Source of the DNA: Dipteris shenzhenensis
Lineage: Eukaryota
Assembly: GCA_047967505.1 (NCBI GenBank)
Contig: CM106538.1
Length of the DNA: 64,000 nt
Reading direction: 5' to 3' (one strand)
The position numbers were made by a program, and so were the translations under genes. The notes beneath the pieces are model-generated. The model was not told the origin of the DNA, ran no database searches, and saw only the letters and a program-made list of their open reading frames with translations. Of the stretch, positions 5,380 to 60,759 are shown in pieces (positions within the stretch are counted from its first letter, which is position 1; each line of letters opens with the position of its first letter).

Positions 5380-6010
5380 ATGGGAATACGATTCTGTGTC
5401 CTTCTGTTATTGTGGGGAGTAGCTGCTAAAGTAAATGGTATCATCGCGTTTTCACCTTCAGGTAAGCGCCGACCTTATATTGCCCTCAAACTTCAATCCC
5501 TGGCGATCATTTTACACGCTTTCATGCGAATTTTAGTTATATGGAAGGTAATTGTTCACTTAGTTGTGGATTTCATTCATACAGAAGATGGTCCTCCCGA
5601 CATCTCTTTTGCGCCGATCAACGTAAGTCTCATAACTTTCTGCTCAATGTAGCGATTGATAATAGGATGACGCCTGTTTTCTGTATGTCCCAGTAGTGCT
5701 GTGCTAAGCCTGCCTAGCGTATCAACATGTCTTTCAGTTTAAAGCTTACGAATATAGAGTCAGTGCACAAGGAGGCTTCAGAGCGCTCGAGGCGTCGAAG
5801 ATTGGATCGAAACCACCTGCTTGTCACAGTAGATGTGAAGGTTGCATTCCTTGCAAACCTATTGAAATTACTGTGCCACCAGGAAAAGGAAAGGTGAAAG
5901 TCGTCTCATCTCCAGACAGCAGTCGCACGACCAGAAGCTCACTGAATGATGCGCCTTACAAGAGTTTAGCCTGGAGATGCCAGTGCAAGGGCAAGTATTA
6001 TAATCCCTGA
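5380..6010 (+). CDS. EPFL: EPIDERMAL PATTERNING FACTOR-like (EPF/EPFL) secreted cysteine-rich peptide, 3 exons (5380-5461, 5585-5622, 5738-6010), 130 aa
   Basis: GT-AG introns with consistent phases. Signal-peptide-like start MGIRFCVLLLLWGVAAKVNG. Mature domain IGSKPPACHSRCEGCIPCKPIEITVPPG...YKSLAWRCQCKGKYYNP* has the six-Cys EPF pattern with GSxPP and W-x-C-x-C...NP ends. TATATAAA at ~5151. Exact EPFL subclade not assigned. Confidence 0.92.
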
Positions 6011-22154: not shown

Positions 22155-22400
22155 ATGCAAAGGTGGAGGGAAGGCTTCCCTCCTGCCACCTCGTCTCCAT
22201 TCCTCACCTCCCTCCTCGCCAGTCCAAGCTCGAGGACGACGTTCATGCAAAGGTGGAGGGAAAGCTTCCCTCCCATCACCCTGTCTCCATTCCTCGCCTC
22301 CCTCCTTGCCAGTCCAAGCTTGAAGATGACGTTCATGCAAAGGTGGAGGGAAAGTTTCCCTCCTATCACCTCGTCCCTCCTCGCAGTCCAAGCTCGATGA
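22155..22400. repeat. 90-bp tandem repeat, ~2.7 copies
   Basis: ATGCAAAGGTGGAGGGAA starts at 22155, 22245 and 22335. Confidence 0.9.
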
Positions 22401-23195
22401 CGATGCCATGTCCAGCTCCACACCCATGATGGTCGACCTGAATGAGTACTATGACAGCTGTGATGCGGAGGAGGAGAGTTTGTGCCCAGCACCATTAGGG
22501 GAGAATTGGGGTCTCAAAAGGGCCTCATAAGGAATGGATTAGGGAATGCGTAGTGGGCTAATGCAAGGGGCTTGGAGGGTCCCAAAGAGGCCTAACCAGC
22601 CCAACCTAGGTGGGTTAAGCCCACATTTGAGCCCACCTCTCCCCCCATCAATGAGGGGAGGGGGCCACTTTTTGAAATTTGAATTTTTTGAATCTCCCTC
22701 CCTCCCTCCCTCCCTCTCTCTCTCTCTCTCCCTCCCTCCCTCTCTCTCCCTCCCTCCCTACCTCCCTCCCTCCTCCTCCTCCCTCTCCCTCTCCCTCTCC
22801 CTCCCTCCCCCTCCCTCCTCCTCTCCCCTCCTCCATCTTGCTCCTCCTCCTCCCTCCTCCCTCTCCCCTCCTCCTCCTTCTGGCTCCTCCTCCCTCCTTC
22901 CTCTCCCCTCCTTCTCTAGTTGCCCAGGATCCCTCTCCTCTGCTCCTCTCTCCTGTAGAATCTCTCCCCTCCTCCTCCCTCCTGTAGCATCTCTCCCCTC
23001 CTCCTCGCTTCTAACAGTAGCTCCTTCCCTCCCTTCTACACCTGTTGCCCTACTCTTCTCCTCCTCTTCCTCTTGCCCTCATCTGCTTCTCCTCCTCCCT
23101 CTTCCTTGCTACTCTCTCTCCCTTTCATTGCTCCATCTTTACCAGCTCTCCCCTACATTTTAGCCTGCATCACTGATACCTCTCTTTGAGTACTC

Positions 23196-25606
23196 ATGGC
23201 ACCATTCAAGGACATATCCAACAAGTACCATGTGAACCTACAACTGGAGGCAGAATATGCAAGCACACGCTCTTTTGGATATAGTGGAACTCCTCAAAGT
23301 GTGCTCCACAGTCTTCGATTGCAAGGGAAGAAGCATCTTGACCTTTGGGTGGATGGAAACTTGTATCCTTTAGACCCTGCCACACAAAAGAGTCCTCCTT
23401 TTCATACAGTGCATAATGTTGTTCGGTTTGTTGGCAAAGGACATGTTGGATTACTCGATTATTACAATCGATTGAACCATTCTCAGACATTGGCTATGCA
23501 AGCAAGCGAGGTGCAGAGAGCCCAAGTAGAAGAACTTGCACATTTGGGAAATATCACTATTGTGGCAATGCATAATAGTATGCAGGATCTCCAATTGCAA
23601 AACAAAGAACTCAGTGACAAAGCACATGCACTAGACTTGGAGCGACATGAATTGGAAGAATCAATCCAGAAGCTTGCTGAAAGCAAACAAGATTTGGAAA
23701 GGTCTATCTATGGCCAAGTTCAACGTGCTATGGAGAAGGAACGAGAGAAGTTGATAGAACGAGTACAAAAGTTGAAGGGAACACCTTTGGGACTGAAGGA
23801 GAGGAAAAGACAATTGCAATCTATGGATGCATTGTCAACCAATAGTGGTGCCCGAAAGAGGAGAATACGGGCTACAAGGTTAGTTCCCCAAATTTTCAAT
23901 GAAATTTCTTACCCCAAAATATTTGTGGTGTTGCATTCTTTCCACTAAGACTCATTTGTACTCTACTTTAGGAATTTCATGGAGGATGTGATGGGAACAA
24001 TGGAAATGGATGATAGTGATCCTTCATATGTTCTAAGAAGTTTAATAAAGCCAAGTGATGTCATGGAAGTGTTGAAGGACCCTAGACAAAAAGGGCTATG
24101 TAAACAAGTTGCTAGAGAGGTAATGAAGGATTTCAAGGGCCCCGTCCAAGCAAAGGAGGTGCTTGGAGCTTGTGATGCTACTGGTGTAAGTCGTGAAGCT
24201 TACAACTCTGATTTTAAAATTTTCAAGTCTACTATGGAGGAAAAGTATAAGATATCTACAATGCCATTGCCAATACCGTGGTCTATAAGGCTTGCACACA
24301 TCAAGAAACAAACCAATGTGCTAGAGAAAAGCTTGGAGGATACCATTGTGTAAGTGGCACAATGACTTGGAAGAGTAAAAAGAAATCTGGCATCCAAATG
24401 TTTGAGATGAATGCTTTCAATAATGTTACGTGGATGTAGAGAATTTGCAGAGAGCCATGGTCAAATTCTATGGGATGAGACAAGAAGGTAAGAGAAATTC
24501 CCTCTTCACATTCAACTTTATTTCTTTTGATTTCTATATCCTTACTGAATTTCTCTTTTATTGTACAGATGGCAAGCTAGTATTTGTTATAAAAATGGAT
24601 GAAGCTCAGTTGGAAAAAGAGCATAAGCTAGAGAGGGTGAGCATTTGTATTATGAATGACGCCTTGCGTTTTGCTCAAGGGGATGAGGAAGTTGAGCAGG
24701 GTTTCTCAGTCCAATCTGAGGAAGACATATGGTGGCTTGCAGCCTTTGAGACCCCAAAGGAGTGCCATGAGACATTAAAGTGGGTTTTGGAGAGAACCAG
24801 CATCCCGTCGATTATTTGAAGACAAGAGGCAAGGCAAACATTAATTGTGGATGGACATGGAACGCTTCAAGTTGAATGGCATCTAGCAGGTGATTTGAAG
24901 ACCCTCAAGTGCTTGTATGGTTATGATATAGGTGCAGATGCAAAATGGACATGCTTGTATTGCACCCACTCTCAGAAGATGCAAAAGGGAAGCCTACAGT
25001 GGGAAAATGGCATCCTTTCTTGCAACCAAAGTGCAGCCCCTGATCGTCACAAAAAGGATCCTAAGTGGGACACCATTCTACCAATTCCATTGGCGCAGGT
25101 ACACGTGTGTACTTTGTATGCTGAACTGCGTATACTTGATAAGTTACTCTATCTCCATCTAGTTTATGCTTGGAATTTGAGGCCACATCAAGTATCTGCA
25201 CAATGCATTGCAAAAGCTGAAGAACTACTCTCACTAATTTTGTGCTTTAAACTTGAGTCAGTTTATGTTTCTAATACAATGTTTTTCTTTACAACATATT
25301 CTTTACGCACATGCACCATGGTTTGTGGAGCAATGGGGCCCTCTATCCATTTGGAATACTCAAGGAGCAAAGGCAGCATACTTCAAGAATACAAGGCATG
25401 GGGGTGATATCGCATGAAGCAATGCACTACACAAAATGTTCGATTGGTTTTATAGATGTCTAGAGGCCAGGACTCTCAAGCGCGATAAGGTAGAGGTCTC
25501 AAGTCTTGCAAATGCAGTTCAACATGTCAAGAAGACAAGGAGATGTGCTGCTTGGAAGTCCTCAATAGGGAGCCAAGGGAGGGGTTGTGCTTTGGTTGCA
25601 ATGTAG
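23196..25606 (+). pseudogene. Spliced DDE transposase pseudogene with RAG1/Transib/Chapaev-type core and N-terminal coiled coil
   Basis: Introns 23879-23971 and 24488-24568 (GT-AG, phase-consistent). Motifs in order: VFVIKMDE (D1), EWHLAGDLKTLKCLYG (D2), WTCLYC (CxxC), VCTLYAELRILDKL (LH-type motif), HILYAH (HxxxxH), SIWNTQG then AKAAYFKNTRHGG. The expected catalytic Glu after QG is absent. Contains stops, frameshifts and an apparent internal deletion near 25235. Confidence 0.78.
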
Positions 25607-25932: not shown

Positions 25933-27039
25933 ATGGCACGAGTTAAACAAATTGCTAGACCCACTGGACGTCGTTTAGACGCTATCCGTTGTCCTCCTCA
26001 CAACGCCATGGCCTCCGAACATACTGCAAGCCCTAGTGGCCAAGAGGGCAATGATCACCAAGGATCTGAAGGCGATTCTCCTCATCATGAGTCCAAGCAA
26101 TGCGAGTCCCCACCATCCGACTCTCATGGGGGGATCTCAGCACCATGAGGAATCCCAACACGATGAAGGATCCAAGCACGATGAGGGGTCCTCTCAGTCC
26201 TTCCACACAACTAATGGTGGAAGTAGAGAGGTCTCCCGAGAGGGGCAAAATAGTCCACTCAATCCTGATCAACTGCCCCTCCCTCCTCCGTGGGGTCCTG
26301 GCGTGGAGCATCTAGACCAACAAGGGGAGAAAGAAAGGCAAAGAGAGGAGATGGAGAGATTACAAGGGCCACAAGAAGAGGAAGTATTTGGCGAGCTCGT
26401 AGATATCTTGAACCTTGGCCCCAATCCTCCAACCAAGCAGACCGCACGGAAGAGCACCATCAACCCTCTGTGCCTCGAGATGATCAGATATGAGGAGCCT
26501 CTAGTATGAGCTGAGCAAGAGCCTCAGCTTGCTGTCTCACAGCCTCGTGAAAAGGAAAAGAGACCAAGGACAAAGCAGACCCCTAGGCATGAGAGGCCAC
26601 CTCGAATAACCCAGCAGACACAGGAAGAGGAGTCTGAAGAGGTGGTTGTAAGGGAGGAGAGGCGAAAGAAGTTCAAAGCAAACAAGCGGCCATGGAGCCA
26701 TGTCCAAAGGCCAGTGCAGGGTCCCCACAGATTAAGAGGCGCAAAAAATCAGGAGTGAAGGCACTTCAAGAGATCTGCAAGTTCCAAACCATTGTGGACG
26801 ATCTCATTCCCCATGCACCCTTCTAGCGTGTTGTACATGAAATAGCATAGCATTACAAGAGTGATGTGTGTTTCACTTCAGGCGCTATGGGAGCAATTCA
26901 GGAGGCAACAGAGAAGATGACACTAGGTCTTTTTGAAGATGCGAACTTATGTGCTATCCATGCCAAAAGAGTAACAGTGATGGACAAGGACCTTGCACTC
27001 GCCAAGCGCATCCGCTCTGATCCCTCCCTTAGGCCCTAG
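25933..27039 (+). pseudogene. Divergent histone H3-like gene with a very long N-terminal tail (~370 codons), disrupted
   Basis: Starts MARVKQIAR. The histone fold (26731-27039) reads [99 protein letters not shown], colinear without gaps with canonical H3. Stops at 26507, 26824 and 26848; two inferred frameshifts (~26130 and ~26600-26640). Confidence 0.92.
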
Positions 27040-27201
27040 ATGTTGTTTAGGTTCATTTGGTGTAACATGAATCATTTTGTAAATCTCTGCCCTTTGAGGC
27101 CAGTTCTATTACTGTTCCCATGTTATTATACATGTTATGTGATGCTTTCCATCAGTTTATGCAAGTTCAGTGTGAATTTGAGTGGTCAAATGATGTTTTT
27201 T

Positions 27202-27394
27202 CACCACACGACAGAAGGCAAATGTGTTCGGCATCGTGCGGGGAGCCCAAAAATGGCAAAACCTGCTATGTCGCATATGGGGCCTGTTTGACGCGCGATG
27301 AGCCCAAAAATGGCCCCATATGCACCATAGCGGGTTTTGCCATTTTTGGGCTCCCCGCGCGATGCCGAACACATTTCCCTTCTGCCGCGCAGTG
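27202..27394. repeat. Foldback/MITE-like inverted repeat (~83-bp arms, ~27-bp loop) with CAC...GTG termini
   Basis: The left arm CACCACACGACAGAAGGCAAATGTGTTCGGCATCGTGCGGGGAGCCCAAAAATGGCAAAACC...ATATGGGGCC pairs with the right arm ending CTTCTGCCGCGCAGTG. Confidence 0.9.
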
Positions 27395-27617
27395 AGATTC
27401 TTACTGGATTGCTCAGAAATGACCATTATAGCGCAAATATTTATCTGATCGCATGCTTTTGAACAAAATAGTGAATGAAAATATTAATGCCAACAACAAT
27501 TAGAGTTACAAAATACAATGATAGTATAAAATAAATTTTGCAAAAGAACACAAAATGGGGCACTGTATAAAAAGTATAGCTATATTCATATAAAATAAAA
27601 TTTCTATACAAAAGGCT

Positions 27618-29664
27618 TCAGAGCCTTTCTCTCTTCTCTAAAACACTAAGAACATTGGGCTTTGAATTCCCAAATACACTCCTAGCTCTAAACCTAGTCA
27701 ATAGAGAGTCATTGCTATTGTCGTTGCTGGCCACGGACATGGTTGCTACCGTCAATGCCATACCTTGAAAATTGGTTCCAAAGGCATTGAGGAAAGCCAT
27801 GCGGTTCACCAAAATGACCTTGTCAGCATTGCGATTGATGTCAGCATGACCAATCACTCTTGACAAGGCCTTGCACTTCAGGAGGTCATCAGTGCCATGT
27901 GTAGAAAACTTTTGTGGATAACCACAAAGCGCCCTTTTGCTTGGCCAAGGTAATGTGCCAGTGAGAGTGATCTCGGTCGAAGCTACTGCGAACAAGGCGT
28001 TGCCGAGATGAGAATAGGTCGACCTCAAATGCCTCCTGCAACAGTCCAACATTACATTAGAATTACATTAAAGCAAAAGTATACCAAGAGAGGAGAAATT
28101 CAAAGCTCATAGTTTCTTACCACTATGGAGTCATCATGCTCAATCCCTTCCTCTTTGTCAATGAGGATGGATCTAGAGGCCTCCTGCTATCTGGAGTGAG
28201 ATGTGGAGGCTTCTTCTGGAACATCAGGTAGGTCGGAGTATATTGATGTCTTTGCATCTTTGATTTGGTCCAGTGTTAAAGCAAGAACCTCTTCTATTGA
28301 ATCATCTGCTCCCAAAAACTCAGGTTCTTGCATAGTCGTGTCCACCTCGTATCCACACAAGATACCAAGAGCTTCATCCTCCCGGAGACCAATTATAAAC
28401 TCTATGTCATGGAGAAAGAGGTATTGTTCTCCATCGACAAGAAGGGGAGCAAGAAACCATATCATTGTTGCGGGGTCAACAGAGGTGGTGCCCAAGGTGG
28501 ATGGAATTTGAGAAGTAGAATGGGGTTCAGGAGGTCGCTGGAGCACTTCCAGGGCCAATGCAGCTTTCCGCTCCTCGGCTTCTTCATCTATGGGCTCTTC
28601 ATTATAGATGTTGGGCTCATCTACACAAATAAGAGGAACGGAAAGGGCAGGGCCAGGGTCAGCAGGGCTTGAGGTCGAGGCCTCCTCTTCCATTTGTCCC
28701 TTCTGGAGAAGGAAAATAAAGGTCATTTCCTAGGATAGGAACCTATTTCATGTGTTTCCGATGACTCCATATGCTAGGAGGTCATCAGTGTCCACCTCCC
28801 TAAACCCTAAGGGTGTGAGCTAGGCTCGAAAGCGATCTAAACGCTTCACAAACCTAGGTTCTTGATTGAACAAGTACTACAAATAATCAATTGGGACCCA
28901 TCTTTTTGTAGACTCATCAAGTTGATATGCAAAACTCGCAATGTAGTCTTGCATGTACTTGATGAGGTCTTCAAAATCATCTCAGGCTCCCAAGTAGGTG
29001 CCTAGGACATCTATGCTCTTATCAAAGACTAGAAATAACTCCTCCTCTCTATCAATTAATGGAGTAGGGGAGATGAAATCGTGGAAGGCAGACCTAGCAA
29101 AATCCATGGTAGTTTGGTGGCTAGGAGAACTATGGCTATGATAGTGAAACTTTGAAACTAAAGTAACTAAATCCTCATGAATGGCAGTAAACTTACCTAA
29201 GAAGCACTTGACTGGTTCCCACTCCTCAAAGTCTGAAGGAAATACATCTGCTATGCACAAGTGCTATTTCAAAATACAATTTCAAACTGACTCATTACAC
29301 TAGTTCTATTTCAAAATACAATTTCAAGCTGACTCATTACACTTCAAAATCTTACAGAAAATGCAGACTTACAATGTGATGGTATTGTCGATTGATTGCT
29401 TGACGGAGGAAGGCACATGTCCTTCCCCATGTAGATGTGTTGCACCTTTGCAAGCAATCCTTTCTTCCCAAGCTTGAACTTCATGATGCGGCCCTTCCAT
29501 TCATGCAAAAGATCACCTCTTTTGCTCTTGGGAAGCTTATGTGGACCCTTGGCAGATCCTCTCATGACTATCCAATCATTCAAGCTATAGGTGCAAGGCA
29601 CCCATTCACCCAATGCGTTTTTGCTCCTGTGGGACACATAGTACCTGTATGGTCTCCTCACCAT
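27618..29664 (-). pseudogene. Spliced gene with N-terminal BAH-like domain and acidic central region (exons ~29373-29664, ~28121-29250, ~27618-28035), disrupted
   Basis: Exon 1 reads MVRRPYRYY...TYSLNDWIVMRG...EWKGRIMKFKLGKKGLLAKVQHIYMGKD. It splices (GTAAGT at 29372, AG at ~29251) in frame to VFPSDFEEWEPVKCFLGKF, matching the BAH pattern Y-x-GD-x-V...GRI...V-x-W-Y...LF-x-S...P-x-x-x-I-x-GK. Exon 2 continues in the same frame through several stops into ORF 28187-28726. The frame of the last exon is uncertain. Confidence 0.62.
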
Positions 29665-29789
29665 GCTTGTACAGAGGTCACAACAGCAATAGTGGACTAG
29701 AAAGTGTAGCTTGGAGGGAGAGAGCAGCTCTAATAGAGGGAGAGAGAGAGGGAGAAGGTATAGAGGGTGCAACTGAAGCTTGAGAGAAG

Positions 29790-30030
29790 CTCCAAGAGGT
29801 GCTGTAGCTAGGAATGGAGGGAGAAAGAGTAGAGGGGGATGAGCAGCTGCTCCAGGAGGTGTTGTAGCTAGGAATAGAGGGAGAAAGTGTAGAGGGGGAT
29901 GAGCAGGAACTACAGGAGGTACTATAGCTAGGAATGGAGGAAGAAAGAGTAAAGGGGGATGAGCAGCTGCTACTGTAGGAGGTGCTATAGCTAGGAGTGG
30001 AGAGAGAATGAGCAACTGCTACAGGAGGTG
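29790..30030. repeat. ~60-bp tandem repeat (about 4 copies) in the leader of the BAH-like gene
   Basis: The unit GCTGTAGCTAGGAATGGAGGGAGAAAGAGTAGAGGGGGATGAGCAGCTGCT...GGAGGT recurs at 60-bp spacing. Confidence 0.85.
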
Positions 30031-30728
30031 CTGAAGAGGGAGAAACATAGTGGACCAGAGCAGGAGGGGGCAGAGAAGATGCCAAATGCATTCCCACATT
30101 TGAAAAATGGAGGGAGAATGGAGCTAGACCAGAGAAGAGGAGGGGGCAGGCCTATAACAAGCTGAGAGGGGGGGAAATTTTGCCTAGAAGGGCCCACCAC
30201 CTCTTGAATGACTTGTAGGTTTGTTTGGGGGAGGTGCATATGGGAGAAGGGTCAAGCATGGGTTGAGGAGGGGGGGGATGGCTTGAGTGGTCCCCGATGT
30301 AAGAGGAGTAGCCAATAGGGGCTATTTGCAGGTCTGCCCACCCTGCACCTCAACGTGGCATTGCCCCACAAAAAGGATCACTCCCATTGGTACACCTCAA
30401 ATACCTCACTAATCCCTTGAAATTAGGAAACACTAATTGGGGGCCCTTTGGAGGCCCCAATTCTCCCCTAATGCTTAGGGGAGTGAAGACATGGACACCT
30501 CGCATGAGGAGGACATCGCTCGTCATGAGGAGGACAGCGCTCGTCACATCCGCATTGATTCATCCTCCTCCCGCCATGGATTGATCGGAGGGCATGACCC
30601 TGTACTTGGAGGAGGCTGGGGAAGCTAGTCGTGCACTATCTCACTGTAGGCATAGAGACCTAAAAGCTCCTCCTACAGTGAGGGCTTCTCATGAACACCC
30701 CATGCACAGGGGGACATTGGCAGCAATA

Positions 30729-54309: not shown

Positions 54310-57300
54310 TGTTGGGGTAAAGCCACATTGCCACCCCTTTATTAAAGATATGACACCTATGACTGTCTTAAGACAGTCATAGGGTGAAAAACCTAATCCT
54401 AATAAAACCTATGAGTTTGTGGTGTGGCTCATCACTTCACACCCGCATCTTTTGTGTCATCTCTCTCTCTCACTCTCTCCCCGTTGTACTTCTCCCTCTT
54501 TCCTTCCCTCTCAACTGGTATCAGAGCCTTCATCTCTCCCTCCTCACTCCTGCCTACCTCTCCCTCTACCCCACCTTGTCCCCTCGGGACTCGTGCCCTC
54601 AGCAGCGTGCAGGCGGCGTGGGCGGAGCTTGGCATTGCGCAGGCAGCGCGGGCTGCAGCGGGATAGCGAGGGCGGTAGCGCGGGCGACAGCGCGCGTGCG
54701 GGCTGAACAGGGCGGCGCGGAGCAGCGCCAGCAGCTGCAATAGCAGCAGCTAGCTGCTGCTAGCTGCTACCCGCTACCAAGCGGGCGCAGCCAGTGCGCA
54801 GCACCGGTGCGCAGCACCGGTGCGCACCCAAGCAGCCTCAGGGCCTCGAACAGGGCGGCGCGCAGGCGCACGCAGGGAGCTTGTGTACGGACGTACGGCC
54901 GTCCGTACCGCCGTACGGACACCGTACAGGCGTCCGTACTGTACGGACGCCGCCGTACGAACTGCGTCAGGAAGCTGCTTCAGGGAGCTGCGTCAGGGAA
55001 GTGCATTTCGAAATTTTTTTTCTGGATTTGTACCCTGCACAAGTACAGCAAGTACAATGGTACCCTGCACAAGTACACAGGTACAGAAAGTACAACAGTT
55101 TTGGACAGAAAGTACAGCAAGTATAGTGGTACCTTGCACAAGTACACAGGTAGAAAAAGTACAACAGTTTTGGACAGAAAGTACAACAAGTACAGTGGTA
55201 CCCTGCACAAGTACACAGGTACAGAAAGTACAGCAGGTACATCAGTTTTTCTTTGGGGAAAGAAGAAAAAGAGAGCATTCCCGGCTATTCAGTTCTTAAA
55301 CTGTGTTTTTGAGGTACAGCAAGTACACTCTTGTCCCTCGTGCTTGAGGTGACTAGTACCACAGTGTGTGGTGGTTGCACAGTTATCTTGTTTCGGGAAG
55401 GTAATGCCTTGATTTTGCATAGGGCTTTTATGCTTTTGCTGAGTGCAAATCTCAGCTTTTGGGTGACATTTTCAAAGGGCTTTTGCCTGAAAGCTTATGC
55501 AGTGTATGCCTTGAGGCAGTGTGGAGCCAGGGAGCTCACATTGGTCTTGTTTCCGCAGTGTATTCAGTGACATTTCTGCAGGTCACATTTTGTGTACGAC
55601 ACCTTGGAAAATCTCAGTTGAGCCACGCTTGGCCAGGGCGCATCGAGTTTACTCGGTCCCTAACTGTCCATCGTTGACAGTGCTCAAAAGATTTTCTCTT
55701 CAGTGTTTGTACGTTGGGATCTGTGTTGTTATTGTGTACACAGGGCTGTTTATGCATTGCATTGTCAGGTGAAAGTGCCAGGAGAGTGCTGTATTTTGTA
55801 TGCTACCTCAGTGTTGAGGTGTTTTTCACTTGGTACAGGTGTCAAATCAAGGGGCTTTTGCCCAGATTTTGCTTGAGAGCACTTGGGTTACTGTTTGAGA
55901 CCTTCAGATGCCTTTTATCCCCTTGGCAGAAGGGTGATTGCTTGGGATTTGTCCCATTTTCTGTTGCAGGTTTGTGACAGGCTGAAGTGTCTGGAGCCTC
56001 TTTTCAGTGAACAAAATAGTGTATGACAAGTGGTTTATGCATATAAAATCAGTGCATTACCTCATCTGAGGTGGGAGAAGTGATCAGGACAGCAGTGTTT
56101 TGTGCTTCGTCAGCTGATGATGCACTGTTAAAGCACTTGTGGAACAGCTGCAGCATTCTGAAATTACTGTTTTATGCCTATTTGAGCACGGTACAGTGTG
56201 TCAGAAGGTACAGTAATTGGAGGGAAATTTTTCTGTTTTGCTGCAGATTTTTTGACAGTAAAAACAGCACTATTGTGAGTGCTCCTGGCTCTTGATAGAG
56301 CAGGTTTTTTCTGAGAAATCAGAATTTTATTCAGTCTTTTTTGACTTACAGGGAGTCAGGTACTTTCCTTATCTGATATGGCATCAGGGGGAAGTGAATC
56401 ATCAATTCTGAACATAAAGAAATTGGAAGGGGCACACAATTATGCATTATGGGCAGAACAGTGTTTGAATGTACTTCTGCTTAAGAAGATTTCTAAGCCC
56501 ATAAGGGTGAAGGGTGTCAAGCCATCTCGGATGTCAGATGATGAGTGGGAGGAGCTAGATTTGTCCGCGAGGGCTGCTATCATGCTTACTCTCAGTGATT
56601 CTCTTGTGTTCAATGTTCAAGCTGAAAAGACCTCTTATGGCTTATGGCAGAGGCTAGCAGAGTTGTATGCCCAAAAGAGTTCAGCCAGTAAGGTGTATTG
56701 GTTGAAGAAGCTGGTTGATCTTCGCATGAAGGAAGGTACAGCTATGACCTCACACTTGAGTGAGTTCAATGCCATCTTTACACAGCTGATTGCACAGGGG
56801 TTGAACCTTGATGAGGAGTTCAAGACTACTTTCTTGTTGTGTACCCTCCCTGAGAGTTGGGACACTTTCAAGACCACCCTGTCTAATTCAAATGTCACTC
56901 TTATATATGCTGATGTAGAGAGCTCTCTCCTTATGGAGGAGATGAGCAGGAAGAATAATGCGGGCAGCAAGTCTTCAAATCCTTTGCATGTACAGGAAAG
57001 AGGCAGGACTCAGCAGAAGGGGAGATCTGCTGGTAAGTCCAAATCCCGCAGTCAGTCCCGTGGCAAAAAGGATACTGAATGCTTTTAATGTGGCAAGAAG
57101 GGACATGTGAAGTCTAAGTGCTTCAAGTTTATACGGGATCAGAAAGCCAAGAAGGCTGAGGCAAAGGATGCAGGCAGTGGAAGCAAAGGCAAAGGCAAGG
57201 CCAAGGTAGATGACTTGGATGCAGTGAATGTTGCAGCAGAGGACAGTGACAGTGACAGACATGATGTTTTATGCTCTTTTGCTGTAATTGCACATACTTT

Positions 57301-60300
57301 GGTTATTGATGGCCATGACATGCACACCTGGCTCTTGGATTCAGGTGCTTCTTTTCATGTTACTCCTCATAGGGAGTGGTTTACTTCCTACACAGGTACT
57401 CATGGAGTTGTTCACCTTGGGAACAACTATGCATGTCAGATTGCAGGGATTGGCAGTATACAGATAGTATTCCCTGATGGACGCATATTTATGCTTGATG
57501 GTGTTCGCCATGTGCCGCAAATCAAGAAAAATCTGATTAGCACTGGCTTGTTGGATGACAGTGGTTACCACACCACATTTGGGGATTCCAAATGGGTGAT
57601 TACTGATGGCCAGGTTGTAGTGGATGAGAGTTTTAAGAGTGATACCTTGTACCCTCTTTATGTTTCCAGTGTAGGTAATCATGTTGTTGCCATAACCGAG
57701 CTGCCAAAGGTTTCATTGTGGCATAGCCGGTTGGGACACATGTCCGTTAAAGGAATGCAAGAACTGTCACGTTTGGGTTATCTGCCGTCTCTTTCATTTT
57801 CAGATTTGCCTACTTGTGATCATTGCATATTTGGCAAGCATTCTATGACTCCTCATAAGAGGAGAACTCCCCAAAATAGAGCACCGCTTGATCTAGTGCA
57901 CACTGATTTGTGTGAGATGCCACAGCTATCACTAGGGGGTGCAAAGTATTTCATTACTTTTATTGATGATGCCACACGCAAAGTGTGGGTCTATTTCTTG
58001 AAGCATAAGAGCGATGCCTTAGATGCTTTCAAGAAGTTTGTCGCTCAGGTTGAGAATCGGACAGGTCGCAGGCTGAAATGCCTCAGATCCGATAATGGGG
58101 GTGAGTATGTGTCACATGCTTTTGTGCAGTTTTGCGAAGCTAAGGGCATTAAACAGGAACTCACAGCCCCTCATAATGCATCTCAAAATGGTGTGAGTGA
58201 GCGGATGGATCGAACTATTCAAGAGAAGGTTCGATGTATGTTGTCTTATGCTGCATTGCCCCATGGCTTTTGGGCAGAAGCCGTGCAAACAGCAGTTCAC
58301 ATAATTAACAGGTCGCCGAACAAGGCTTTGGAGTTGAAAGTGCCAGAGGAGGTGTGGTCTGGCAAGCCACCTTCATATAAGCACTTACGTGTGTTTGGCT
58401 GCGAGTGCTTTGCTCATATACGCAAAGAACTGCGCACCAAACTGGAGTCAAAGTCTTCCAGATGCATCTTTATGGGTTATGGTGACGAAGGTGAAATGGG
58501 GTACAAGTTATGGGATCCCGTTAAACGGAAGATTATACGCAGCAATGATGTCATCTTTAAAGAGGATAGTGTACACAAAGAACCCGTGCAACCTGTGGAA
58601 TACAGGAGGCTTGTTTATGATGATGTCGGACAGCAAAGAATGCCCATTAATATGCAGCAGCAGGCTGCTGCAGATAACCCTGTTCAAGAGGGTATACAGG
58701 CTGAAAATCAGCCAGATAATTTTGCCAATGATGCACCACTGAATATGCCAGCAAATGGGGCTGTAGAACAGCCGGATATGGTGATACAGCCACCCATCAT
58801 GCATGACGAACAGGCTAGACAGCAGCCTAATCCGGAACATTTTGTTAGGAGGAGCACCCGTGTACAACGGCCTCCTGACATGTTTGTTCCAGGAGCCAAT
58901 AATGTGGATGATTTTATTATGCTGACAGATTGTGGTGAGCCTTCCAGCTTCAAGGAAGCTATGGGAAGAACAGAGAAAAGGAAGTGGGAGAAAGCCATGC
59001 AATCTGAAATGGACTCCCTACTTCAAAATGATACATGGGACTTGGTGCAGCTACCTGCAGGCAGAAAGGTTTTGCCATGCAAGTGGGTTTACAAAGTCAA
59101 AGTGGATTCAAATGCTTTACCAAGGTATAAGGCCAGATTGGTTGCCAAGGGATTTAAGCAGGAGAAAGGCATTGACTTTGATGAGATTTTTTCCCCTGTA
59201 GTCAAGATGACTACTTTGAGAGCAGTGTTAGCTCTTGTTGCTCATGAGGGCTTTTCTTCATGGAGATCTCCATGATGAGATCTATATGAGTCAGCCAGAG
59301 GGATATGCTGTTAAAGGGAAAGAGCAGCTTGTGTGTAAGCTCAAGAGGAGCTTGTATGGACTCAAGCAGGCACCAAGAGAATGGTACAAGAAGTTTGATG
59401 CCTTCATGCAGTCCCAAGGGTATCATAGGTGTGAGACCGATCATTGCTTGTACACCAAACGGGCAAAGGATGGCAGTTTGATGCTACTCATTCTATATGT
59501 GGATGACATGCTAATTGCCAGTAAATCTCAGCATGAGATTAGTGCTTTGAAGAAACAACTGCATAAGTCTTTTGACATGAAAGACTTGGGTGATGCAAAC
59601 CATATTCTTGGCATGCGGATTACTCGTGACAAGTCCAAGGGACTTTTGTTTCTATCACAGAAGGAGTACATTGACAAAGTACTGCAGAGGTTTAAAATGG
59701 AGGGGGGGAAGTCTATTAGTACCCCGTTGCCTCCACATTTAAAACTCAGCAGTAAGGACAGCCCCAGATCAGATGATGATAAGGCTGAAATGGCCAAGGT
59801 TCCGTATGCATCTGCAGTTGGTTCTTTGATGTATGCCATGGTTGCCACTCGTCCGGATATTGCTTTTGCGGTGGGAGTCATCAGCAGGTATATGGCAAAT
59901 CCAGGCAAGCGGCACTGGGAAGCAGTGAAAGGTGTCTTGAGGTATCTCAAAGGTACCAAAGACTTGTGCATATGCTATGGTAGGCAAGATGCATTGGTGC
60001 ATGGTTTTACAGATTCAAACTATGCAGGGAATGTAGATAACCGGAAGTCTACTACCGGTTATATTTTCACATTTGCAGGAGGTGCTATATCATGGGTGTC
60101 TCGGTTGCAGAAATGCGTTGCACTGTCAACCACTGAAGCTGAATATGTTGCAGCCACTGAGGCTTGCAAGGAAGCAATATGGCTTACTCGGCTGGTGGGA
60201 GATTTGGGCACTACAGGAGATATGCCAGTTTTGCATTGTGATAGTCAGAGTGCTATCATGTTGGCAAAGAATCCGGTCTTTCATCAAAAGACCAAGCACA

Positions 60301-60759
60301 TAGATGTGAAATATCATTTCATCAGGGAGGTACTGGAAGACAAGCGACTTGAGCTTGTGAAAGTGCATACTGATGATAATCCTGCAGATTTGCTCACTAA
60401 GAGCTTGCCTACAGAGCGGTTTGCACATTGCCGCCACATCATGGGATTAGGATGAGACCATTCTTATTTTATGGTCTTGTATACAGTAACTGTATATTGC
60501 TGTAATTTTTTATTCTTTTCTCCCCTTTAGGCACATTGGCCTTTAGGTGGGAGGTTGTTGGGGTAAAGGCACATTGCCACCCCTTTATTAAAGATATGAC
60601 ACCTATGACTGTCTTAAGACAGTCATAGGGTGAAAAACCTAATCCTAATAAAACCTATGAGTTTGTGGTGTGGCTCATCACTTCACACCCGCATCTTTTG
60701 TGTCATCTCTCTCTCTCACTCTCTCCCCGTTGTACTTCTCCCTCTTTCCTTCCCTCTCA
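54310..60759 (+). mobile_element. Young Ty1/Copia LTR retrotransposon
   Basis: 204-bp TG...CA LTRs at 54310-54513 and 60556-60759, differing at one base by eye. TSD GTAAA. PBS TGGTATCAGAGC at 54516. PPT AGGTGGGAGG before the 3' LTR. Confidence 0.97.
56378..60455 (+). pseudogene. Copia gag-pol polyprotein (gag, zinc knuckle, PR, IN, RT, RNase H), disrupted
   Basis: WLLDSGAS, LWHSRLGH, DNGGEY, LYVDDML and STTEAEY motifs. In-frame stop in the zinc knuckle (CF*CGKKGH, 57086) and a frameshifting deletion at ~59248. Confidence 0.95.

Follow-up and report, generated by a model that had tools for sequence, protein, structure and literature searches.

Which protein is encoded by a spliced and partly decayed gene that lies between two inverted repeats, and what would an intact version of it do? 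This question is raised by a stretch of 64,000 nucleotides (nt) of Dipteris shenzhenensis (GenBank assembly GCA_047967505.1, contig CM106538.1), referred to here as the window, the minus strand of which carries a two-exon gene for a protein with a BAH-like domain. An earlier note on this DNA had proposed a hidden BAH-like gene, encoded by a transposable element (TE) and possibly acting as a chromatin reader. In the analysis described here the exon structure of the gene was established, a BAH-like fold was predicted for the N-terminal domain of two relatives, and the gene was found enclosed in a transposon-like segment. We consider it somewhat probable (roughly 0.55) that the gene served a transposon as an accessory gene and is dead in this copy, and that its product in live copies would be a BAH-fold reader of nucleosomes or histones that serves in tethering or anti-silencing.

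Structure and decay of the gene

The gene consists of two exons separated by a conserved phase-1 intron. Exon 1 (29373-29664, minus strand) opens with an ATG at 29664-29662, comprises 97 codons and one further base, the first of a codon that is completed in exon 2, and is intact in the copy studied. Intron 1 (29248-29372, minus strand) has a GTAAGT donor at 29372-29367 and a tandem acceptor, with a TAG ending at 29251 and a CAG ending at 29248; it measures 122 or 125 nt, the frame is preserved with either acceptor, and a 42-nt tandem duplication (29256-29339) lies inside it. Exon 2 (29105-29247, minus strand) encodes the second half of the BAH-like domain (VFPSDFEEW...GKFTAIH...). Most relatives of the gene are short predictions, in which conservation ends precisely at the end of exon 1. 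In an alignment of 67 rows (A4) this end is reached by 60 rows, the next residue being Cys in 46 of the 60 and the next two Cys-Lys in 29 of the 60, as expected of read-through of T|GT(AAG) into the intron. Four relatives (P0065, P0062, P0067 and P0032) are joined exactly at the exon junction of the window, and six others (P0011, P0040, P0060, P0063, P0069 and P0066) carry an unconserved insert of 25-36 residues at this point. Furthermore, the exon 2 region (29251-29156) was recovered by tblastn with P0011, P0040, P0060, P0063, P0065 and P0069, at 40-60% identity. The start of exon 2 is most likely 29247, after the CAG acceptor, and not 29250, because the N-Y-IFPSD of P0065 matches the H-Y-VFPSD of the window. 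A second intron, starting from a GTAAGT at 29196, was considered and ruled out, since this stretch encodes G-K-F codons that are conserved in P0011 and P0040; moreover, three AG sites lie downstream, with exon starts at 29135, 29129 and 29120, and the frame of P0046 is restored by none of them.

Beyond exon 2 the frame runs on down to 28187. The open reading frames (ORFs) 28982-29263 and 28187-28729 are one frame, continuous with exon 2, with five in-frame interruptions (TGA 28984-28982, TAG 28879-28877, TAG 28822-28820, TGA 28750-28748 and TAG 28732-28730), and the frame is ended by a TAG at 28189-28187. The five stops all fall in a conserved middle region (28650-29107, minus strand), in frame with exon 2 and beginning MDFARSAF..., for which no Pfam family was found. 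What follows the BAH-like part matches a single protein, P0046 (E 6.9e-54, 55% identity), and the five internal stops line up with its residues R, L, Q, G and W; this is therefore a genuine coding region that has since decayed. The frame continues as an acidic part of low conservation (28121-28649, minus strand) with a possible GTAAGA donor at 28120, for which no relatives were found besides P0046. Judged from its reading frame, the copy studied is a pseudogene, which would make at most a truncated product of 184-185 residues.

How far the gene extends beyond this point was also considered. A 149-codon ORF (27618-28067, minus strand) lies in a frame different from that of the candidate splice product 28035-27889, and its membership in the gene is unsupported: it gave no Pfam family and a best Atlas score of 0.78. 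Inspection by eye and a relaxed tblastn search (P0060 231-307, E 2.3) had made a similarity of this ORF to the usual C-terminal domain of the family seem possible. That candidate was rejected, since a profile of the C-terminal domain built from five long members misses it; against the 1657 ORFs of at least 25 amino acids (aa) in the window the best match of this profile, at E 0.49, lay elsewhere. The five long members (P0060, P0069, P0063, P0011 and P0067) share a second conserved domain of ~190 residues after the BAH-like part, a domain that the window lacks; the AlphaFold2 (AF2) model shows it as beta-rich, with a predicted local distance difference test (pLDDT) score of 45-72, and it is without a Pfam family.

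Thus, the claim of the earlier note that a spliced gene is split over several ORFs was borne out by direct reading and by the spliced relatives; the peptide it had quoted as spanning the intron is found in the spliced translation, and the single frame broken by TGA and TAG stops was confirmed, with five internal stops and a closing TAG. The four spliced and the six insert-bearing relatives back the splice junction, for which the note had called for support from other copies. It had placed the second exon at about 29250; junction and phase hold, while the exact start was 3 nt off by homology. An extension of the gene to 27618 is not upheld, the ORF at that end being in another frame and without homology support.

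The family of relatives

With exon 1 as the query, a search of 1.84 billion representatives yielded 45 proteins at E<=1e-3; of these, 12 lie at E<=1e-10, the best at 1.8e-32. A profile search among 1056 candidates yielded a further 33 at E<=1e-3, none of which has a precomputed Pfam domain; the sole named relative among these 33 is the hypothetical protein GOP47_0024093 of the fern Adiantum capillus-veneris (P0067). Sequence searches thus show that the family comprises 45 or more diverged clusters, which are without Pfam annotation. The closest relatives of exon 1 are P0002 (77% identity), P0004 (66%) and P0001 (65%), and P0004 also matches the DNA upstream of the ATG (29895-29494, E 9e-27). 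A search for longer relatives of exon 1 found none among 22 candidates, which is weak evidence. Near-invariant positions in the family are W-K (in HWKGRI) and Q-H-V(-Y) (in VQHVY).

Prediction of a BAH-like fold

Structure models of two relatives were made with AlphaFold2, P0040 from an alignment of 43 rows and P0060 from one of 67 rows. The P0040 model has a pLDDT of 67.9 overall and of 82-94 at residues 11-80; for P0060 these values are 61.8 overall, 83-96 at residues 11-80 and 85-87 at residues 141-160. The N-terminal strands, modelled with high confidence in both relatives, are those to which exon 1 of the window aligns. In Foldseek searches against the PDB all matches listed, 31 of 31 for the P0040 model and 32 of 32 for the P0060 model, were BAH domains or BAH-containing chains, and SH3, Tudor and chromo domains were absent from the matches listed for both models. 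The proteins matched include TNRC18, PBRM1, EBS, SHL, AIPP3, ASI1, BAHCC1, ORC1, ASH1L, Sir3, Rsc2, DNMT1/MET1 and ZMET2; DNMT1, MET1 and ZMET2 are proteins that contain BAH domains. Most of the matches listed have a probability of 0.9-1.0 (best ~1.0), with E values from 3.4e-3 to 0.3. For ORC1 the template modelling (TM) score, normalized to the target, is 0.45-0.47; the root mean square deviation (rmsd) is 4.5 A over 152 columns for EBS and 5.1 A over 155 columns for SHL. The order of the conserved blocks across the intron is also the same as in BAH domains. A BAH-like fold of the N-terminal domain (~150 residues), as predicted in the two relatives, thus has support, though of low formal strength. 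The earlier note had staked its BAH call on a structure search of this kind, and every match listed points to BAH; the fold was thus upheld by the models of two relatives, whereas membership at the sequence level was not found in the Pfam and PDB searches described below. If the prediction is right, this family would be a chromatin fold missed entirely by sequence profiles, in fern genomes that are rich in TEs and poorly annotated.

The enclosing segment

The gene is enclosed in a 7,981-bp segment between 32-nt inverted repeats. The left repeat (22493-22524) has the outer end CATTAGGGG... and the right repeat (30442-30473) the outer end ...CCCCTAATG. They are 94% complementary (blastn E 7e-9), and no other inverted match between the flanks is significant. 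The repeats are terminal and have CA..TG ends, as given for the termini of CMCT elements in the accessible text of PMC12730594. The observed/expected ratio of CpG is 0.29 in the segment and 0.38 in the window, which fits a long-methylated, dead element. In the stretch that leads upstream from the ATG to the right inverted repeat there are four tandem repeats of 60 nt (29782-30015), subterminal in position. A 90-nt repeat in three tandem copies (22155-22424) is found close to the left inverted repeat, on its outer side; the left boundary may therefore lie further out, or another repeat may abut the element at this side. The left end also contains a CT-rich tract of low complexity (22543-23160), which on either strand gives rise to spurious ORFs in several frames. 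Pfam was run on 125 ORFs of the window of at least 88 aa, and found nothing for the 24 that lie between 22543 and 30151.

Two further decayed genes lie in the segment, both on the plus strand. Transposase-like remnants (23190-25404) consist of four ORF pieces in two frames, with two in-frame stops. They contain the motifs GD (24886-24900), C-x2-C (CLYC, 24952-24963) and H-x4-Y (HVCTLY, 25102-25119), the last with Y at the second H position of the H(3-4)H motif. The order GD...C-x2-C...H-x4-(Y) agrees with the C(2)C and H(3-4)H motifs that are given in the accessible text of PMC12730594. Among the Atlas neighbours of the piece 24820-25404 are clusters of Plavaka, RAG1 and Transposase_21, at 0.94-0.96. 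The N-terminal part of the remnants is a coiled coil, and in Pfam the first piece gave coiled-coil matches alone (E>=0.059). The remnants may derive from a CMCT-type (CACTA/Plavaka/RAG-like) transposase, an assignment that is not firm. Plavaka elements have been found in algae and moss and were likely lost in land plants, according to the available part of PMC13519894. If the CMCT assignment is true, a fern with such an element would merit some interest, given this stated loss.

The second is a histone H3-like pseudogene (25933-27036). It has an H3-type start (ARVKQIAR...) and a histone fold (26638-27036), the latter recognized by Pfam as Histone (E 2.3e-17) and matching H3.3, its nearest match in the PDB, at E 3.9e-19 over residues 2-57 of a 62-residue piece. 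Its reading frame is not intact: stops occur in the fold at 26824 and 26848, and the frame is not kept from the start through the TKQTARKST stretch to the fold. Three stretches resemble an H3 tail, ARVKQIARPTGRR (25936-25974), TKQTARKST (26432-26458) and TKQTPRHE (26570-26593), the first being in another frame than the other two.

The transposase-like, H3 and BAH-like genes are all dead in the copy studied. Between the two convergent genes lies a near-perfect hairpin (27201-27395). Its 89-nt arms are 88% complementary and enclose a loop of 17 nt, and it looks like an inserted miniature inverted-repeat transposable element (MITE). The inverted repeats with CA..TG ends, the transposase-like remnants and the H3 pseudogene make a transposon context of the BAH-like gene, as had been suggested before, plausible.

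The window has a plant-like, repeat-rich content, with an EPF gene and pieces of copia and LINE elements. ORF 5708-6007 (plus strand) matches the Pfam family EPF (epidermal patterning factor, E 6.4e-17) and is probably an exon of a host gene; this match makes the window land-plant-like. A copia-type retrotransposon (56345-60452, plus strand) has open gag, protease-integrase and reverse transcriptase frames (ORFs of 728 and 407 aa) and seems much younger than the element studied here.

Proposed role and alternative explanations

An intact copy of the gene would, in the reading that we prefer, encode a reader of nucleosomes or of histone tails. Such a reader may tether the transposition complex to a chromatin state, or may shield the chromatin of the element from silencing, a part that is played in other transposons by chromodomains, PHD fingers, Tudor and MBD domains; W-K (HWKGRI) and Q-H-V-Y (VQHVY) would be a candidate binding surface. 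The earlier note had suggested that the protein may bind the tail of the co-encoded H3. Co-folding of P0060 1-205 with the H3-tail-like stretch 26387-26506 of the window gave a score of 0.00, an alignment not being used, and speaks neither for nor against binding.

A number of results weigh against the preferred reading. At the sequence level the BAH assignment found little. None of four pieces of the window matched any Pfam family at E<=10, and the Pfam BAH family (PF01426, gathering cut-off 30.8 bits) was found at E<=1 in none of the 47 family members of alignment A1. Among nine longer members it was found in one, the correctly spliced P0065, at 12.6 bits and E 0.13; PF01426 is the only Pfam match of this protein. 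Exon 1 gave no matches in the PDB with phmmer at E<=10, a profile search of the PDB with alignment A1 gave none either, and one with alignment A5 gave three matches at E 0.91-5.5, none of them BAH. The Foldseek matches are formally of low strength, the best E value being 3.4e-3, with none at <=1e-3, and the TM scores lying between 0.31 and 0.47, all below 0.5. The second half of the domain has low model confidence in both P0040 and P0060, and the proteins modelled are relatives with intron-derived inserts, ~28-32% identical to exon 1 of the window, and not the product of the window itself. The architecture of the copy differs as well: its BAH-like domain is ~13 residues shorter than that of relatives before the last predicted strand, and its P0046-like downstream region differs from the C-terminal domain of the long members. 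The shortened domain and the P0046-like tail indicate that the copy has a different architecture or is chimeric, and it may be a chimera. As regards the element, no target-site duplication was found at the boundaries tried (2-5 bp expected; direct repeats of 2-8 bp examined; flanks ...CAGCAC / CTTAGG...). Three of the four transposase-like pieces matched no Pfam family at E<=5 and no relevant PDB match was obtained; Atlas recognition of the transposase-like piece was 1904, under the mark of 2300, and the transposase call rests on the Atlas lead and short motifs.

The differences in architecture bear on a second explanation, which we consider unlikely: the element may have captured a piece of a host BAH-like gene, from exon 1 through the intron into exon 2, and fused it to unrelated sequence (Pack-type transduplication), in which case the piece was never functional for the element. 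This would account for a domain that is shorter than in relatives and runs into a P0046-like region absent from the long members, and it is in line with the upstream sequence of P0046, in which an in-frame BAH-like exon is lacking. The neighbouring H3, closest to ordinary H3.3, is likewise what capture of host genes would give. However, the closest relatives (P0002, P0004 and P0001) are many, fragmentary and diverged, as in a repeat family, and the similarity of P0004 upstream of the ATG reaches into what would be the leader of an element-borne copy. Moreover, the junction of exon 2 with the middle region reads open and in frame.

The formal weakness of the structural matches bears on a third explanation, in which the beta-rich domain is a DNA- or RNA-binding accessory protein of the element (TnpA-like), acting on the 60-nt subterminal repeats, and the likeness to BAH is one of small-barrel topology only. 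These repeats adjoin the gene, the Foldseek E values are weak and TM scores stay below 0.5. Stray weak Pfam matches among the 47 members are scattered over other small-barrel domains (MLV integrase C-terminal domain in two members, Spin/Ssty and Clr2 in one each). Furthermore, the family appears to have His at the position of the classic cage Trp on the reader strand of BAH readers. It is nevertheless quite unlikely that the domain is of this kind, since the Foldseek matches listed are all BAH or BAH-containing for both models, with no SH3, Tudor or chromo domains, and the order of the conserved blocks across the intron follows BAH.

That no transposon is involved, and that a host gene of the ordinary kind has decayed where two inverted 32-mers flank it by chance, is the least likely of all: the missing target-site duplication, the lack of a second copy of the element's genes within the window and the lack of a transposase recognizable by Pfam would fit, but the flanks share no significant inverted match other than the 32-nt repeat (94% matched, E 7e-9), which has CA..TG ends and encloses three unrelated pseudogenes, one of them transposase-like, and the gene family is large and mostly fragmentary.

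The preferred reading, a dead copy of an accessory gene for a BAH-fold reader, may be extended further. The element would then belong to an unrecognized family of fern CMCT-type transposons with a portable chromatin module, an H3 variant of its own together with a BAH-fold reader invisible to Pfam. These two would serve to build or recognize special nucleosomes on the element, to escape silencing based on H3K9/H3K27 or to choose insertion sites. This extended proposal is, in our opinion, very unlikely to hold as a whole.

Comparison with known systems

The protein GOP47_0024093 of Adiantum (P0067) belongs to the same family as the gene in the window (profile E 9e-17) and has the same splice junction. 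It begins after the first two strands and has a C-terminal domain that the window lacks; no Pfam domain is on record for it or was found by scan.

The plant BAH readers EBS, SHL, AIPP3 and ASI1, and the BAH domain of ZMET2/CMT3, are among the top structural matches of the models of the two relatives and show the same strand order, whereas sequence similarity to the gene in the window was not detectable. Unlike these readers, the gene in the window is without an attached PHD finger or methyltransferase and is carried by a transposon-like element. Its family appears to have H where the readers have the cage Trp.

Mobile elements with a chromatin reader of their own are known. According to the accessible parts of the reports, transposons may carry Chromo, PHD and MBD readers (10.1101/2021.11.30.470311) or a Tudor reader (PMC12477816), and epigenetic enzymes of the TET/JBP type occur in CMCT transposons (PMC12730594). 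The idea of a mobile element with its own reader is thus shared with the chromodomain Gypsy elements and with captures of PHD, Chromo, Tudor and MBD domains. In these, as far as the accessible texts describe them, the domains are mostly fused to the integrase or transposase, whereas in the window the predicted BAH-like fold has a gene of its own, which lies in the opposite orientation in a putative DNA transposon. In open-access papers and preprints no transposon-borne BAH domain and no transposon with both an H3 and a reader were found. A plant DNA transposon in which a BAH-fold reader has its own gene, beside a transposon-borne H3, would apparently be undescribed in this literature.

The fungal CMCT elements (EnSpm, Plavaka and ESTA with a TET/JBP dioxygenase), as described in the accessible text of PMC12730594, come close to the element in the window. 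They share CA..TG termini with it, and their C(2)C and H(3-4)H motifs, which follow the second catalytic D, resemble the candidate motifs of the transposase-like remnants; they also have an accessory gene aimed at host silencing, as is likewise proposed here. In the window a 2-5 bp target-site duplication is not visible and the transposase is unrecognized by Pfam. The cargo differs too: in the fungal elements it is an enzyme, whereas the element in the window carries a reader-like domain and an H3 gene, and its host is fern-like. Readers and erasers of chromatin marks that are carried by transposons show how mobile DNA negotiates host silencing. Because the copy studied is dead, its value in this comparison is that of a pointer to intact copies elsewhere.

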